64,000 bases of DNA from Escherichia phage ECO07P1: the sequence record OP172784; one strand, given 5' to 3'. The notes beneath the pieces are model-generated. The model made no database searches. It was not told the origin of the DNA and saw only the letters and a list, made by a program, of their open reading frames with translations. A program made the position numbers and the translations under genes. The first letter of the stretch is position 1. Every line of letters starts with the position of its first letter. This document shows, piece by piece, positions 28,102-63,502 of the stretch.

Positions 28102-28911
28102 TTAGAAACGAGATGCGACTTTCGCATATACACTTACAATATCTTCTGCACCAGGTGCAGCTTTATCTTCTACAGCTTCAGTGACGAAATTCAGTCCGGC
28201 TGCTTCAGTATCAGGAGTATTTATACCCTCAGTAATAGTGCTTTCATCTTTATTAGACTTCTTCACCATTTCTACGATGGCACTCAATTTACTTGAGAAT
28301 TCATCTGAATAATCCATACCTTCGACCAGAGCAGAGACTTTTTCTTTTTGAGACTCAGTCAGATCTTTAGTACTTTCGCTCAATGCCACTTCACGCTGCA
28401 CATAATTGATATATGCGTCACGCTTATTGAGTTCTTCGAACAGACGAGCTGATTCTTCTTTATGTTCTTGCAGCTCTTCTTCCATTTCAGCTACAACATC
28501 AACTGATTCTTCTGGAACAACAACGTTGTGTTCAACAAAGAGCTCTTTTAATCCACCAAGCATGGATTCAAACAGTTCGGCTTTGATGCCTTTATCAACT
28601 GCTAATTTATTTTCAGCGAGCCATTCTTTCGCAAGATGGTCGATGAATTTAGAAGCTTGCTCAGCGATTTTCTTCTCAGCTTTTTCTTCGGCTTCTTCTT
28701 TATTTTTTTCTACTTCTTCTTCTGCTTTTTCAGCAATTTTAGCGATATGAGATTCAGCTAATTTAACGGCGTGCTGCTTGACGGTAGCTTCGAATACAGT
28801 GCCGAAAGTTTCTTTTGCTTCCGGAGAAATATTAACTGATTCGAAAATACTATCAAGAGCAACGGAAGCATCAATTTTCTGCGCTTCGGCAATCAGTTGT
28901 TCTTTAAGCAT
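28102..28911 (-). CDS. 22: prohead core scaffold protein gp22
   Basis: 269 aa, highly acidic coiled-coil-like translation; late promoter at 28939-28946. Confidence 0.85.
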   Translation of the reverse strand: MLKEQLIAEAQKIDASVALDSIFESVNISPEAKETFGTVFEATVKQHAVKLAESHIAKIAEKAEEEVEKNKEEAEEKAEKKIAEQASKFIDHLAKEWLAENKLAVDKGIKAELFESMLGGLKELFVEHNVVVPEESVDVVAEMEEELQEHKEESARLFEELNKRDAYINYVQREVALSESTKDLTESQKEKVSALVEGMDYSDEFSSKLSAIVEMVKKSNKDESTITEGINTPDTEAAGLNFVTEAVEDKAAPGAEDIVSVYAKVASRF

Positions 28912-28938: not shown

Positions 28939-28946
28939 TATTTATA
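28939..28946 (-). promoter_or_regulatory. late promoter upstream of gene 22
   Basis: TATAAATA on minus strand. Confidence 0.6.
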
Positions 28947-29580
28947 ACGCTTTTTTCATGGCCTCTGCGAGAGCCATATAGGCGTCATCGGCACTTGTAT
29001 CGGCTTCCGCCGTCTGTGATTCGGTAATTTCCTTAGGAGTTACCCATGCATCTGGAGCACTTGGACCCCATACTGCATCAACACCTACAGTTAATTTGAA
29101 TCCTTCGTTTACGATACGATAACCTTTATTTGTGTCAGTCAATGAACCTAATCCACGAGAAGAAACTCCTGGAATCCATCCGGCACGAATATTAGCTGCT
29201 AATTTATCTCCAGGACCATGGTCACCTTCAATAACACGAGCTCGTCCGTATACGTCATTTCCTTTCCACCACATATCTTCTATAATGATAGCGGCTTGCA
29301 TCGGGTCAACATTAGCGCGTGGAGGATGATTTAATTCTCCGAGAGCTTGTTTAGTTAAAACTTGCTCATTGATATAGTCTTTTACCGCTTTTTCTAATAT
29401 GCGTTTTGGATAAAGACGTTTATTTCTATTGACGACTTCCGCTTGCATGAATATTCCTTCAATGTATAAACCCGGTTTTAAACCTAGGTCTTTTCCATCG
29501 TGGGATTCAAGCATTGGCACACCATCAATAATTTCGCCAGGTTGACCCCAAGTTTCAATTAATAATTGGGGTTCATTCAT
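28942..29580 (-). CDS. 21: prohead core protease gp21
   Basis: 212 aa, as T4 gp21; synteny. Confidence 0.9.
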   Translation of the reverse strand: MNEPQLLIETWGQPGEIIDGVPMLESHDGKDLGLKPGLYIEGIFMQAEVVNRNKRLYPKRILEKAVKDYINEQVLTKQALGELNHPPRANVDPMQAAIIIEDMWWKGNDVYGRARVIEGDHGPGDKLAANIRAGWIPGVSSRGLGSLTDTNKGYRIVNEGFKLTVGVDAVWGPSAPDAWVTPKEITESQTAEADTSADDAYMALAEAMKKAL

Positions 29581-59159: not shown

Positions 59160-59171
59160 TTTCACAAAGTT

Positions 59172-59210
59172 GTTTACACGGGGTTTTAGTTGTGATACTA
59201 TTACCCTATC
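59172..59210 (+). promoter_or_regulatory. early promoter cassette upstream of first IP-like gene
   Basis: GTTTAC 59172-59177, TGa-TACTAT at 59196-59201, followed by ACCCTATC. Confidence 0.6.
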
Positions 59211-59237
59211 AAAACAAATGAGTGATTGGAGAATAAA

Positions 59238-59510
59238 ATGAAAACATTTAAAGAATTTATCAATGAAGCTGCTTTTAACGAAAAAGTAAAAATTAGCAAA
59301 GCTGTCAAGACTATGATTGATAACATCAATTACCTATATGGTATTGATTTAACTGACTATGTAACAGTTGGTAACAAACGTAACTATTTCGTGTTTGACA
59401 TCTCTGAACTTGACCAGAATCAAATTAACAACATTGAGCGTTTTGCTAATGATAAGGGTCTTCGTCATGAGTCAGCGGGTTATAAAAAATACGCAATTTA
59501 TTTAAAATGA
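59238..59510 (+). CDS. internal-protein-like small protein with N-terminal capsid targeting sequence
   Basis: Starts MKTFKEFINE|AA.., matching the T4 IP capsid-targeting sequence/gp21 cleavage context (MKTYQEFIAE|A recalled); preceded by early promoter cassette and RBS GGAGAATAAAATG. Confidence 0.6.
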   Translation: MKTFKEFINEAAFNEKVKISKAVKTMIDNINYLYGIDLTDYVTVGNKRNYFVFDISELDQNQINNIERFANDKGLRHESAGYKKYAIYLK

Positions 59511-59545
59511 GTTTACTTTTAAATAGGGTTGTGGTACTATTATCT
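59511..59545 (+). promoter_or_regulatory. early promoter cassette upstream of second IP-like gene
   Basis: GTTTAC 59511-59516, TGg-TACTAT extended -10. Confidence 0.55.
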
Positions 59546-59570
59546 CATCAAAATTAATTAGGAAAATAAA

Positions 59571-59879
59571 ATGAAAACATTTAAAGAATTTATCAATGAA
59601 GCGGCTGCACCAAAGACATTCATTATTTATACTCAAGCGGGTCTTGATGATGAGTATGCGGAAGCAATTCTGAGGTCACTTGCTAAGAACGGTGTTGAAG
59701 TAATTGCTTCGGACTTTAAGAAAGGGGCTTCCGAGATGTTTATTTCTATAACTAAAGGATCTAAAGCTAAAATCAAATCATCATTCGGTGTTGCTCGTAC
59801 CGATCAAATCGACAATCATGACTTTAAACAAACTGGTGCTAAACGACAGAATACAATTGCATCACGCGGAATAAAATAG
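59571..59879 (+). CDS. internal-protein-like small protein with capsid targeting sequence
   Basis: Starts MKTFKEFINE|AAAPK..; own early promoter cassette. Confidence 0.6.
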   Translation: MKTFKEFINEAAAPKTFIIYTQAGLDDEYAEAILRSLAKNGVEVIASDFKKGASEMFISITKGSKAKIKSSFGVARTDQIDNHDFKQTGAKRQNTIASRGIK

Positions 59880-59891
59880 TTTATAAAAACC

Positions 59892-59930
59892 GTTTACTTT
59901 TAGATAGGGTAGTGATACTATTACCCTATC
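59892..59930 (+). promoter_or_regulatory. early promoter cassette with flanking inverted repeat (promoter-early-stem-loop-like)
   Basis: GTTTAC 59892-59897; arms GATAGGGTA and TACCCTATC flank the -10 GTGATACTAT. Confidence 0.6.
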
Positions 59931-59949
59931 AACTACTGAGGAGAATAAA

Positions 59950-60174
59950 ATGAAAACATGTAAAAAATTTATTGTAGAAGCTAAAAGACACGAAGACGAA
60001 CTGCCTTTTGTTTCAAAAACCTTTGATGGAACATTGGCTGATTTTAAAAAAATTCCTAATGATAAACTTGCTAAATTGGTTGGTTCTATTAGTGAAAAAG
60101 ATGGCAAGGTCACATTTTCTGCTCAAGGCGTTGCCAATCTCAAGAAACTTTTGAAAGCCGCTGGTGTTGAATAA
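59950..60174 (+). CDS. internal-protein-like small protein with degenerate capsid targeting sequence
   Basis: Starts MKTCKKFIVE|AK..; own early promoter cassette and RBS GAGGAGAATAAAATG. Confidence 0.5.
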   Translation: MKTCKKFIVEAKRHEDELPFVSKTFDGTLADFKKIPNDKLAKLVGSISEKDGKVTFSAQGVANLKKLLKAAGVE

Positions 60175-60177
60175 ATT

Positions 60178-60216
60178 GTTTACATAGGGTTTTAGTTGTG
60201 ATACTATTACCCTATC
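60178..60216 (+). promoter_or_regulatory. early promoter cassette with flanking inverted repeat
   Basis: GTTTAC 60178-60183; arms ATAGGGT and ACCCTAT; identical leader ACCCTATCAACTACTGAGGAGAATAAAATG as at 59920-59952. Confidence 0.6.
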
Positions 60217-60235
60217 AACTACTGAGGAGAATAAA

Positions 60236-60805: not shown

Positions 60806-60878
60806 TGGGAATTAGCCAAGTTGGTAAGGCACTGGATTTTGATTCCAGGATGCAAAGGTTCGAGTCCTTTATTCCCAG
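60806..60878 (+). tRNA. tRNA-Gln (anticodon UUG)
   Basis: Hand-folded cloverleaf: acceptor TGGGAAT/ATTCCCA, anticodon stem CTGGA/TCCAG with loop TTTTGAT, T-arm AAAGG-TTCGAGT-CCTTT. Confidence 0.8.
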
Positions 60879-60879
60879 C

Positions 60880-60966
60880 GCGAGAATGGTCAAATTGGTA
60901 AAGGCACAGCACTTAAAATGCTGCGGAATGATTTCCTTGTGGGTTCGAGTCCCACTTCTCGCACCA
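60880..60966 (+). tRNA. tRNA-Leu (anticodon UAA), class II with long variable arm
   Basis: Acceptor GCGAGAA/TTCTCGC, anticodon loop CTTAAAA, long variable arm, T-loop TTCGAGT, 3' CCA encoded. Confidence 0.8.
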
Positions 60967-60971
60967 AATTT

Positions 60972-61045
<74 letters not shown>

Positions 61046-61055
61046 ATTTAATTTA

Positions 61056-61130
61056 CTCCGTGTAGCTCAGTTTGGTAGAGCGTCTGCTTTGGGAGCAGAA
61101 TGTCGCAGGTTCAAATCCTGCCGCGGAGAC
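61056..61130 (+). tRNA. tRNA-Pro (anticodon UGG)
   Basis: Acceptor CTCCGTG/CGCGGAG, anticodon stem TCTGC/GCAGA with loop TTTGGGA, T-loop TTCAAAT. Confidence 0.8.
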
Positions 61131-61131
61131 T

Positions 61132-61221
61132 GGAGGCGTGGCAGAGTGGTTTAATGCACCGGTCTTGAAAACCGGCAGTCGCTCCGGCGACTCATAGGTT
61201 CAAATCCTATCGCCTCCGCCA
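61132..61221 (+). tRNA. tRNA-Ser (anticodon UGA), class II
   Basis: Acceptor GGAGGCG/CGCCTCC, anticodon stem CCGGT/ACCGG with loop CTTGAAA, long variable arm, CCA encoded. Confidence 0.8.
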
Positions 61222-61226
61222 GTTTT

Positions 61227-61302
61227 GCTGATTTAGCTTAGTAGGTAGAGCAACTCACTTGTAATGAGAAGGTCGGCGGTTCGATTCCGTCAATCAGCAC
61301 CA
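61227..61302 (+). tRNA. tRNA-Thr (anticodon UGU)
   Basis: Acceptor GCTGATT/AATCAGC, anticodon loop CTTGTAA, T-loop TTCGATT, CCA encoded. Confidence 0.8.
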
Positions 61303-61303
61303 A

Positions 61304-61378
61304 GGCCCTGTAGCTGGAAGGTTCAAGCAAGCGACTCATAATCGCCAGATGGTGGTTCAATTCCACCCAGGGCCACCA
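61304..61378 (+). tRNA. tRNA with CAU anticodon (Ile via lysidine modification, or Met)
   Basis: Acceptor GGCCCTG/CAGGGCC, anticodon loop CTCATAA, T-loop TTCAATT, CCA encoded; the T4 equivalent is recalled as annotated Ile. Confidence 0.75.
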
Positions 61379-61391
61379 AATTAAGAATTAA

Positions 61392-61478
61392 GGGGAGTTA
61401 TCCCGTAGAGGTAGCGGTGTGGACTGTAAATCCATTGTCATTGCGACTCGGGTGGTTCGACTCCATCACTCCCCACCA
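61392..61478 (+). tRNA. tRNA-Tyr (anticodon GUA), class II
   Basis: Acceptor GGGGAGT/ACTCCCC, anticodon stem GTGGA/TCCAT with loop CTGTAAA, 15-nt variable arm as expected for bacterial-type tRNA-Tyr, T-loop TTCGACT, CCA encoded. Confidence 0.7.
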
Positions 61479-61482
61479 ATTT

Positions 61483-61557
61483 GGATGTGTAGCTCAATGG
61501 CAGAGCGATCGCCTGTTAAGCGATTGGTTATAGGTTCGAATCCTATCACGTCCGCCA
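61483..61557 (+). tRNA. tRNA-Asn (anticodon GUU)
   Basis: Acceptor GGATGTG/CACGTCC (one G-U), anticodon stem ATCGC/GCGAT with loop CTGTTAA, T-loop TTCGAAT, CCA encoded. Confidence 0.7.
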
Positions 61558-61561
61558 AATC

Positions 61562-61637
61562 CGAGGCATAGCTCAGAAGGAAGAGCAAGGACCTTCTAAG
61601 TCCTAGGTCGTAGGTTCGATCCCTACTGCCTCGACCA
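61562..61637 (+). tRNA. tRNA-Arg (anticodon UCU)
   Basis: Acceptor CGAGGCA/TGCCTCG, anticodon stem AGGAC/GTCCT with loop CTTCTAA, T-loop TTCGATC, CCA encoded. Confidence 0.8.
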
Positions 61638-61653: not shown

Positions 61654-62004
61654 ATGAAAGGTAATGTTTATTTAGTAGTTCATGATTTAACATTCTATTT
61701 TAATCATAATGACACTGTTATTTCTGAACGCGTAATTAATTTGCTTTATCAGCACGCAGATTATGTTTATGTCGAAAACGAATACGGTCATTGGCAATTT
61801 CTCAAAAATCGTTCATTTGGTTTAGATGGTTACGAATACTTTGAACGTAAAGACCTTTTAGATAAAATTCCATTATCTACACAATATCAAAATCACAAGT
61901 CTTTACATAAATGCCGTCCAATTCGAAATGTTGAATCTGCGTATGAAGCAATTGATTTGTGGCGTAAACGCCGTGAACAGATTGATGCTTTAAAAGAATA
62001 TTAA
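61654..62004 (+). CDS. hypothetical protein (116 aa)
   Basis: ORF with RBS GAGGAAAATATG directly after tRNA-Arg. Confidence 0.45.
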   Translation: MKGNVYLVVHDLTFYFNHNDTVISERVINLLYQHADYVYVENEYGHWQFLKNRSFGLDGYEYFERKDLLDKIPLSTQYQNHKSLHKCRPIRNVESAYEAIDLWRKRREQIDALKEY

Positions 62005-62345
62005 GAAACCGGGTCGCTACCGGTAAGTCGTCGGACTGATGTTCCCTGGGTAAGGACTGGCATTAACAAATCTTTACGATTTGTTAATGTCCCCTTACAT
62101 CACAGCAGAAACGGCGCACCGAATTATCGATTCGAGGAAATATCTTTGCCGTAAGCCGAGTAGCGTTTTTGACGGAACGTTCGGATATGGTCGAGATATG
62201 GCCTTTTAAAAATATTAAGTAGCGTCAACTGCTTAATAACCGGGTTCGAATCCCGGCGTTTCGTACAAACACTTGCCTTAGCAGGTGGAACCCCGACAAG
62301 GTTGCCGCAAGGCTTAGCCCCGACCGAAAGGTTGGGGCTTTTTAG
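62005..62345 (+). ncRNA. putative structured stable RNA(s) / tRNA-like element, ending in an intrinsic terminator
   Basis: No ORF of 60 aa or more; perfect 11-bp hairpin ATTAACAAATC-TTTAC-GATTTGTTAAT (about 62057-62083); tRNA-like T-arm CCGGG-TTCGAAT-CCCGG with possible acceptor pairing CGGAACG/CGTTTCG; terminator AGCCCCGACC-GAAA-GGTTGGGGCT-TTTTT at 62316-62345. Confidence 0.3.
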
Positions 62346-62433
62346 TTTGAATCACTCGGATAACGCTGTTACGGATAATAACAAAGTAATAAATAATTAA
62401 TAACCAACCGATAGATTATTTCAAGGATTTTAA

Positions 62434-62997
62434 ATGAAAACTTATGCCGAATTTTTAACCGAAGCAGCAAAATTACCATCTGAAGCAGAACTTACTAAAG
62501 TATTCTTCCAATTGGACCCAAAAGACCGTGGCGATTTTCTTAAGTGGAAAGCTAAAGCTATTGAAATGTATAACATTGATAATAGTTCTTTTACGATGAG
62601 TCAAGAAAATAAATTCAATAAAGCATTTTTCAAAATTTCTAAGAAACTGGCATCTGGCGCTCAGGTTCCTAAATCTGCCTTAGCTACTCCTGAACGTGCG
62701 CCTGTTAAAATTTCTAAGAATATGTTCGACACTAAAAAATACGTTAATGCTTTGAATAAAGCTCTTGATGCATTGGATGATGCAAAGAAGGCAGCCCGTG
62801 ATCTTCAAGACGTGTACATCGATTTTGATCGTAAAACTAAAGGTTCTATTTCAAATAGCGAACGCAATAGTGTAAGCGTTTATTCTGATAGCCTTGACGT
62901 TCTTGGCGATGCGTATACTGAAATTAAAAATCGTATTAACACCGCATCTAAACTAAAAGCTGCCGCAGAAGCTATAATAGCTAAACTAGATAAATAA
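62434..62997 (+). CDS. internal-protein-like protein with capsid targeting sequence (IPIII-sized)
   Basis: 187 aa starting MKTYAEFLTE|AAK.., very close to the recalled T4 IP capsid-targeting sequence; followed by terminator 63005-63030. Confidence 0.6.
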   Translation: MKTYAEFLTEAAKLPSEAELTKVFFQLDPKDRGDFLKWKAKAIEMYNIDNSSFTMSQENKFNKAFFKISKKLASGAQVPKSALATPERAPVKISKNMFDTKKYVNALNKALDALDDAKKAARDLQDVYIDFDRKTKGSISNSERNSVSVYSDSLDVLGDAYTEIKNRINTASKLKAAAEAIIAKLDK

Positions 62998-63004
62998 TTT
63001 TAAA

Positions 63005-63030
63005 TCCCTATCTAAATGATAGGGCTTTTT
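63005..63030 (+). terminator. intrinsic terminator after IP-like gene
   Basis: CCCTATC-TAAAT-GATAGGG followed by CTTTTT. Confidence 0.6.
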
Positions 63031-63164: not shown

Positions 63165-63200
63165 GTTTACATCCCCGTTCTTCCATGGTACTATACAACT
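63165..63200 (+). promoter_or_regulatory. early promoter with A/T-rich upstream element
   Basis: TTTTTAAAAAATTTTTT tract, GTTTAC 63165-63170, GG-TACTAT -10, leader TATCAACTACTGA. Confidence 0.55.
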
Positions 63201-63238
63201 ATCAACTACTGATACAGAAAAACAACTTGGAGAATGAA

Positions 63239-63502
63239 ATGGATAATTACGGCGAACTGTTCAACTTCTTTATGAAATGCGTTTCAGAAGATTTCGGTCG
63301 TACAGTGAATGATATTAAAGTCATCGGTCCTGACCATCCGATGTTTGAAACTTACGCAGTAATGGGTAATGAAGACGGTCAGTGGTATACTGTAAAAGTT
63401 GTGATTAATATGTTCACTGCTGAAGGTTATGTTAAACTGTCTTCTAAAGTTTACCACGATAACGATGAAATCGCAGAAGAATATTTCAATAATATGAAAT
63501 AA
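63239..63502 (+). CDS. hypothetical early protein (87 aa from Met at MDNYGELF)
   Basis: RBS GGAGAATGAAATG; early promoter cassette at 63165-63192; track ORF start at 63185 lies inside the promoter and is unlikely. Confidence 0.45.
   Translation: MDNYGELFNFFMKCVSEDFGRTVNDIKVIGPDHPMFETYAVMGNEDGQWYTVKVVINMFTAEGYVKLSSKVYHDNDEIAEEYFNNMK

Follow-up and report, generated by a model that had tools for sequence, protein, structure and literature searches.

The DNA analysed here, a stretch of 64,000 nucleotides from Escherichia phage ECO07P1 (record OP172784) that is referred to below as the window, contains an open reading frame beginning MKTYAEFLTEAAK whose 187-aa product starts with MKTYAEFLTE, a leader of the type carried by the internal head proteins of phage T4. 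In a preliminary description this ORF was regarded as a fourth capsid-targeted protein displaced from three others to the far side of the tRNA cluster, which was taken to suggest that such tagged cassettes move as modules. The question raised by the locus is whether the gene is that of T4 IPIII at its normal place, a cassette that has left the ipI locus or a member of another family, and what its product might do.

Genomic context

The window comes from a Tequatrovirus (T4-like) genome and runs opposite to the T4 map. Gene 1 is followed by 57A, 57B, three small ORFs of the MKT(F/C)K(E/K)FI type, homologues of trna.4 and trna.2, ten tRNA genes, a 116-aa ORF, rnaD, rnaC, the 187-aa ORF and a homologue of e.8 (Table 1). 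The separation of the 187-aa ORF from the three other leader-bearing ORFs by the tRNA cluster and a structured RNA region is as first described, with two untagged small ORFs and the 116-aa ORF also lying in between. The gene is outside the 57B-trna.4 interval, that is, not in the ipI-locus position. No Rfam family was obtained for rnaC or rnaD, which were placed by alignment to annotated T4.

Table 1. Positions in the window of the 187-aa gene, its cassette and the related features
Feature	Position	Strand	Basis or remark
gp22 scaffolding core protein, presumed leader target	28102..28911	-	Pfam T4_CASP, E = 3.8e-90
gp21 prohead core protease, expected leader-removing enzyme	28942..29580	-	Pfam Peptidase_S77, E = 1.5e-111
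ipI locus, three leader-bearing ORFs (59238-59510, 59571-59879, 59950-60174)	59238..60174	+	Match PHROG internal head/virion protein families
Ten tRNA genes	60806..61637	+	Between ipI locus and 187-aa gene
rnaD (~62003-62122) and rnaC (~62127-62265), the structured RNA region	62003..62265	+	Alignment to annotated T4
rnaC terminator hairpin, upstream cassette boundary	62316..62343	+	AGCCCCGACCGAAAGGTTGGGGCT + TTTTT; terminator scan
687-bp cassette missing in T4 (promoter box, ribosome-binding site, ORF, own terminator)	62344..63030	+	Four-haplotype alignment
AATAAATA box, late-promoter-like	62388..62395	+	A(-13) variant of T4 late promoter TATAAATA; 38 nt 5' of ATG
Ribosome-binding site AAGGA	62423..62427	+	6 nt 5' of ATG; read from sequence
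CDS, putative internal head protein precursor	62434..62997	+	187 aa, stop included
Codons 1-10, MKTYAEFLTE, predicted capsid-targeting leader	62434..62463	+	Predicted gp21 cleavage after Glu10 (LTE/AA)
Predicted mature protein	62464..62994	+	Residues after Glu10; 177 aa, 19.7 kDa, pI 9.46
Cassette's own terminator, downstream cassette boundary	63006..63030	+	CCCTATCTAAATGATAGGG + CTTTTT; terminator scan and haplotype alignment

Some features of the neighbourhood differ from T4. The window has ten tRNA genes where T4 has eight, those for Tyr and Asn being extra; the gene read as Met (CAT) at 61304-61378 probably corresponds to tRNA-Ile of T4, and the segB homing endonuclease is absent from the cluster. 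The interval between tRNA-Arg and rnaD, which is without a gene in T4, contains the 116-aa ORF (61654-62004, phrog_3355, unknown function). Its counterpart at this place in Mosigvirus TU01 (L006 1780-2124) is 68% identical, Serratia phage CHI14 has an ORF of equal size (L007 1963-2307), and in phage EP01 an annotated homing endonuclease is found in this region instead. The start at 63185 that was assigned mechanically to the e.8-homologue ORF (63185-63502) is probably wrong: the start of T4 e.8 corresponds to the ATG at 63239, phrog_2678 is matched from residue 19 onwards, and there is an early-type promoter at 63166-63194.

The gene and its expression

The 187-aa ORF is a real gene, as indicated by its AAGGA, its own terminator, a late-type box, its conservation and a low dN/dS. 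It is carried by phages such as EP01, IME340, HP3 and CrRp10 and is present in 164 phage records with 83-100% amino-acid identity, and 13 synonymous and 5 non-synonymous changes separate it from the allele of SA21RB (dN/dS ~0.09, a value from one allele pair and small numbers, the direction of which is clear). The protein matches phrog_2280, listed in PHROGs under 'unknown function'. The cassette terminator, CCCTATCTAAATGATAGGGCTTTTT, can be aligned base for base to that of rnaC, CCCCGACCGAAAGGTTGGGGCTTTTT, and paired changes between the two preserve the stem; it looks like a diverged copy of the rnaC element.

Expression is probably late, from a predicted box that is a non-consensus variant of the T4 late promoter. 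An A at -13 occurs in 9 of the 50 T4 late promoters listed in PMC2988020, and the canonical TATAAATA stands at the equivalent place in the paralogous 157-aa cassette of SA21RB and in the Mosigvirus homologue of TU01. In contrast, early-type promoters (GTTTAC...TACTAT) are found upstream of the three ipI-locus ORFs of the window, with no TATAAATA nearby, and these head-targeted proteins look early-transcribed.

At the ipI locus a near-identical early-type promoter, GTTTAC...G(T/A)TACTAT...CCCTATCAA, precedes each leader-bearing ORF as well as the trna.4-like ORF (regions 59160-59240, 59511-59570, 59880-59949 and 60175-60235). Moreover, the leader-coding DNA of the first two of these ORFs (59238-59267 and 59571-59600) is identical at 30/30 positions and their bodies are different, as might result at this locus from recombination or duplication by way of the leader.

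Leader, processing and packaging

When all six frames of the 64 kb were scanned for MKT-x2-[EKQD]-F, without restriction on its place in a frame, four hits only were obtained, at 59238, 59571, 59950 and 62434. As all four are ORF starts the pattern is not due to chance, and the ORF at 62434 is indeed the fourth with a capsid-targeting leader. The further statement that its leader is the closest to the canonical sequence in the window is correct only in part: it agrees with the T4 IPII/IPIII leader MKTYQEFIAE at 7/10 positions but is tied with MKTFKEFINE of two ipI-locus ORFs, which also agrees at 7/10, MKTYAEFLTE retaining Tyr4 and MKTFKEFINE retaining Ile8.

Experiments with IPIII (Mullaney and Black 1996, as summarized in PMC9026906) assign targeting mainly to residues 4 and 7 and processing to residues 8 and 10. 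At these positions the 187-aa protein has Tyr4, Phe7, Leu8 and Glu10; it is the same as IPII and IPIII at three of them and has a conservative Ile-to-Leu change at position 8, and the targeting determinants of T4-type internal head proteins (an aromatic residue at 4 and Phe7) are present. In addition, Leu8-Thr9-Glu10/Ala11 is the sole [LIVM]-x-E motif in the protein and agrees with the gp21 site rule of Leu or Ile at 8, Glu10 and then a small residue. The gp21 and gp22 machinery is encoded in the same window as the gene.

Glu10 is shared by all 12 aligned relatives, which have Tyr or Phe at position 4 and Leu or Ile at position 8. Only seven columns of this alignment are invariant, including Met1 and Glu10, and Phe7 and Ala11 are nearly so; the same kind of leader is found in further relatives beyond these 12. 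Of the indirect evidence that the leader is used, the strongest is its constancy in proteins whose bodies have diverged to about 20% identity.

It might be argued that the protein is not packaged at all, that its leader-like N-terminus is inherited or coincidental and that it acts late in the cytoplasm. The non-consensus promoter box and the indirect nature of the case for packaging would agree with this, but the leader and Glu10 have been kept through the drift of the remaining protein and the ten leader residues are sufficient in T4 to package foreign proteins (PMC9026906), so that we regard a purely cytoplasmic protein as unlikely. Packaging and processing of the 187-aa protein are considered probable, and the predicted mature protein would begin at Ala11 with the peptide AAKLPSEAELTK. 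Literature searches by phage, accession and ORF names retrieved no reports on virion proteomes, N-terminal sequences or injection that concern a member of the family, and the paper on fPS-65/fPS-90 contains no proteome.

Relation to T4 IPIII

The preliminary description had pointed out that full-length identity to IPIII with conserved gene order would make this gene an ordinary one. Neither was found. BLASTP alignments of the 187-aa protein with T4 IPIII and IPII are confined to residues 1-12 and 1-11, respectively, and the gene lies between rnaC and e.8 and not between gene e and ipII/denV, which is the IPIII position. Identity with IPII or IPIII was ruled out, the similarity in BLASTP being restricted to the leader.

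An IPIII orthologue at its normal place would be suggested by the similar length (187 versus 193 aa), charge and composition and by the shared leader type. However, besides the end of the alignment at residue 12, the site is vacant in T4, and phage EP01 has a 100% identical copy of the 187-aa gene together with a true IPIII (192 aa, nearly identical to that of T4) about 4.6 kb further on, after gene e. An orthologue of IPIII is for these reasons scarcely conceivable. The window ends before the region that corresponds to the EP01 IPIII gene, and its own ipIII is thus out of view.

EP01 also has ORFs at the ipI locus and a further leader-bearing ORF of 105 aa (MKTFKEFIAE..., L001 10845-11162). 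The latter takes the place of T4 ipII and precedes IPIII rather than following it, from which it appears that the Ip locus between e and denV is polymorphic too.

Cassette haplotypes in Tequatrovirus

The organization of the site was compared by aligning four haplotypes, those of T4, Aplg8, the window and SA21RB. T4 has an empty site, in which the rnaC terminator (...GGGGCTTTTT) is joined directly to GGTATCTA. In Aplg8 the rnaC terminator is followed by AGTATAAATA, a 157-aa ORF (MKSYAQFLNE...), a second terminator copy and GGCATCTA, and in the window by AGTTTGAATC, the 187-aa ORF, its own terminator ending GGGCTTTTT and then GGTATCTA, while SA21RB has both cassettes in tandem. Each cassette carries its own promoter and terminator, and every junction falls directly after a GGGCTTTTT. 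The junction of the window is what would be expected from a deletion between the terminator copies of the haplotype with both cassettes.

The gene is non-essential and variably present, the T4 site being empty and relatives having the 157-aa cassette only, the 187-aa cassette only or both. In an even sample of the rows obtained in the flank search, the records that contain both flanks are estimated to divide roughly into a half with the 157-aa cassette only, a quarter with both cassettes, a sixth with the empty site and one in twenty with the 187-aa cassette only. Moreover, the best 60 junction matches comprised 12 with the 187-aa cassette only and 48 with both. By both measures the window has the rare arrangement.

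The 157-aa and 187-aa proteins are, according to profile comparison, remote paralogues. With hhalign they were aligned over their full length (probability 96.4%, E = 1e-9), and BLASTP of the 157-aa protein against P0019, a homologue of the 187-aa protein, gave E = 2e-8 in the C-terminal domain. Neither leader sequence was found in the supplements of Silas et al. 2025.

LR597660.1 (Escherichia phage T4_ev151) bears the name of a T4 derivative and has at 66212-66422 the 187-only junction that is lacking in T4, which suggests that this region was acquired from another phage by recombination.

Homologues in Tevenvirinae and the origin of the position

Word-indexed and tblastn searches with the 187-aa protein returned near-identical copies only. 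An exhaustive phmmer search recognized P0013, a full-length match with 32% identity and the N-terminus MITFNEFLNE; used as a bridge query, it matches 350 phage records. A profile search extended the family to some thirty clusters, and each of those with a source name is a 'hypothetical protein'. The distant full-length homologues are 19-32% identical and have the same kind of leader, and the identity to the window protein outside Tequatrovirus in the 12-sequence alignment is 19-27%.

Directly behind the tRNA genes a homologue is found in at least five Tevenvirinae lineages outside Tequatrovirus, represented by Mosigvirus TU01, Winklervirus CHI14, Kagamiyamavirus EcS1, Dhakavirus CLB_P2 and Klebsiella phage HMGUkp2. 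In TU01 the upstream region is as in the window (a 68%-identical 114-aa ORF, rnaD, rnaC, terminator, TATAAATA, AAGGA and ATG) and the gene downstream of the homologue differs. The gene order in related phages, which was to be compared according to the preliminary description, is therefore against a displacement of the 187-aa gene, since its homologues occupy the same place in five other lineages. In T4 the tRNA cluster is flanked by ip genes, with ipI to one side of it and ipII and ipIII to the other.

A recent move of the cassette from the ipI cluster across the tRNA genes, by shuffling through the shared leader, would be in line with the leader motif common to the three ipI-locus ORFs, with the compact promoter-ORF-terminator module and with its presence/absence polymorphism. 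Nevertheless, apart from the same-position homologues, the leader DNA of the 187-aa gene is identical at 24/30 positions to that of the local 157-aa paralogue and at only 19-21/30 to those of the ipI locus, the box is of the late type here and of the early type there, and the junctions lie at terminators and not within the leader. Such a move is consequently very improbable, and in an unsystematic look no homologue of the mature body was found in the 57B-trna.4 interval of T-even phages. The idea that tagged cassettes move as modules survives in a restricted sense: a self-contained promoter-ORF-terminator module is present or absent in close relatives with exact junctions at terminators, but its position does not look like the outcome of a move from the ipI cluster. 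Given the homologues at the same site, the leader DNA closer to that of the local paralogue, the different promoter type and the ip genes on both sides in T4, the position of the 187-aa gene looks ancestral.

Ip genes have been described at 'two distinct loci' (Silas et al. 2025, PMC12373910). The 187-aa gene is likely to represent the Tequatrovirus branch of a family that resides just 3' of the tRNA/rnaC region across Tevenvirinae, and this would be a third Ip locus. Searches of the literature with ORF names did not find an earlier description of the family or the locus; Repoila et al. 1994 may contain a mention.

The metagenomic proteins P0021-P0024 have the leader, N-terminal domain and linker as in P0013 and another C-terminal domain (PGLKV.GKYG...RDNG.LYK...). 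Their sequences indicate domain swapping within the family.

Protein composition and predicted structure

The body of the protein had been described as Lys/Ala-rich and predicted helical, and this was confirmed. There are 27 Lys and 25 Ala in the 187 residues, and in the AlphaFold2 model the protein is all-helical except for a single disordered linker. The predicted mature product has 26 Lys and a net charge of +8. In the model, obtained with a 15-sequence alignment (mean pLDDT 80.7), a floppy leader is followed by a helical N-terminal domain at about residues 17-73 (pLDDT ~71-87), the disordered linker at about residues 74-100 and a confident three-helix C-terminal domain at residues 101-186 (pLDDT >90); with a pTM of 0.45 the relative placement of the domains is undefined. 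The mature protein is thus predicted to be all-helical, two-domain and basic.

For the 187-aa protein Pfam gave only sub-threshold cytochrome b562 and coiled-coil noise, the sequence-profile search of the PDB gave nothing with E < 0.07, and Foldseek gave nothing with E < 0.8 against the PDB and unannotated family members only against viral models. PADLOC gave no match.

Proposed function

Taking the evidence together, the 187-aa ORF is likely a functional and probably late gene for an internal head protein precursor that belongs to a new family, and neither IPIII nor a displaced ipI-locus cassette. By means of its leader the protein would enter the prohead core formed by the gp22 scaffold, and the gp21 protease would cut after Glu10. 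The 177-aa basic helical product would remain in the DNA-filled head and be ejected into the host with the DNA, and on arrival would most likely disarm some host defence. At the Tequatrovirus site zero, one or two paralogous cassettes would be gained and lost at terminator repeats.

The last step of this scheme for the protein is drawn by analogy. T4 Ip1, Ip2 and Ip3 are inhibitors of type IV restriction, each directed at a different GmrSD enzyme, with the leader as the sole feature common to the three (PMC12373910), and Bas37_0260, an unrelated leader-bearing protein of the ipI locus, inhibits McrBC (bioRxiv 10.1101/2025.11.20.689424). That unrelated proteins stand behind a shared packaging leader is already well known. 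The homology of the 187-aa protein to characterised type IV restriction inhibitors, compared for IPII and IPIII, is confined to the leader. An anti-defence role can accordingly be put forward as a tentative proposal, with slightly less than an even chance of being right.

The protein might instead be packaged for a structural or physical purpose, such as neutralising the charge of the DNA, organising it or aiding its ejection, the kind of role that the basic IPII and IPIII were for a long time supposed to have. A basic, Lys-rich product would suit this role, and according to an older view Lys residues of internal proteins contact DNA phosphates in T4 heads (PMC3012670). The strong purifying selection, the conservation of the position across genera and the long Ala/Pro/Lys linker in relatives can be read in the same way. 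Within Tequatrovirus the gene is 95-99% conserved and its position is fixed across genera, whereas the ipI locus turns over fast, which could point to a housekeeping role in the head and not to an arms race. However, the gene is dispensable, being absent from T4, and IPII and IPIII, once deemed merely structural, proved to be specific inhibitors of restriction enzymes (PMC12373910). A mainly structural role, and with it the purely physical explanation, seems to us rather unlikely.

A broader scheme can be offered as speculation and is itself doubtful. The gene would belong to a third ancient Ip locus of Tevenvirinae with a modular family composed of a leader, a conserved N-terminal domain, an Ala/Pro/Lys linker and an exchangeable C-terminal domain. 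After injection the product would act as an effector on some host system different from the GmrSD variants countered by Ip1-3, C-terminal domains such as those of P0021-P0024 would set the target specificity, and the position beside the tRNA genes might reflect co-selection.

The gene would add a third locus to the two described for injected T-even internal proteins (PMC12373910). Unlike other Ip families, this one can be traced across several genera, and yet it is 'hypothetical' in every source seen. It is a concrete candidate for a new phage counter-defence, and since about 164 sequenced therapeutic-type Tequatrovirus phages have it and T4 does not, it could contribute to differences in host range among near-identical phages.

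Comparison with known internal proteins

Of the known proteins, T4 IPIII is among the closest to the 187-aa protein. Both have a ten-residue leader of the same type, cleaved after Glu10 in IPIII and predicted to be so here, and both are non-essential. Mature IPIII* is alike in size, charge and Lys and Ala content (183 aa, pI 9.65 and net +10, against 177 aa, 9.46 and +8). However, no similarity is detectable past residue 12, ipIII sits between e and ipII, and the 187-aa protein is predicted to be all-helical with two domains. Moreover IPIII has a known target, the GmrS1/GmrSD2 enzyme (PMC12373910), whereas none is assigned to the 187-aa protein.

With T4 IPI, IPII and the alternative proteins of the ipI locus (Repoila et al. 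1994, as cited in PMC9026906 and PMC12373910; Bas37_0260, bioRxiv 10.1101/2025.11.20.689424) the 187-aa protein shares a pattern of unrelated bodies behind a common packaging leader and of presence that varies among close relatives. It differs in that genes of the ipI and IPII type are at the two described Ip loci and the 187-aa gene is at a third site, next to rnaC. The ipI-locus ORFs of the window are also small (74-102 aa) and have early-type promoters, whereas the 187-aa gene has a late-type box and cross-genus homologues in the same position.

The 157-aa ORF of many Tequatrovirus and Mosigvirus phages (for instance RB32ORF133c and SA21RB_137) shares the locus of the 187-aa gene. It is next to rnaC, has the leader MKSYAQFLNE and its own late promoter and terminator, and is alike in architecture, with a helical N-terminal part, an Ala/Pro/Lys linker and a helical C-terminal domain. 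However, BLASTP between the two proteins detects the leader only, and the 157-aa ORF is more widespread (512 records) and missing from the window.

Finally, phrog_2280 and the 'hypothetical proteins' of Dhakavirus, Mosigvirus, Winklervirus, Kagamiyamavirus, Karamvirus and fHe-Yen9-01 (P0013, P0019, P0025-P0042) are full-length homologues with the leader and, where the locus was examined, have the same position as the 187-aa gene. They differ from it in being 19-32% identical, in a longer Ala/Pro/Lys linker and in a conserved ERMTKxKWQ motif that is missing in the Tequatrovirus branch, and some of them have a second I/L-x-E site or a different C-terminal domain.
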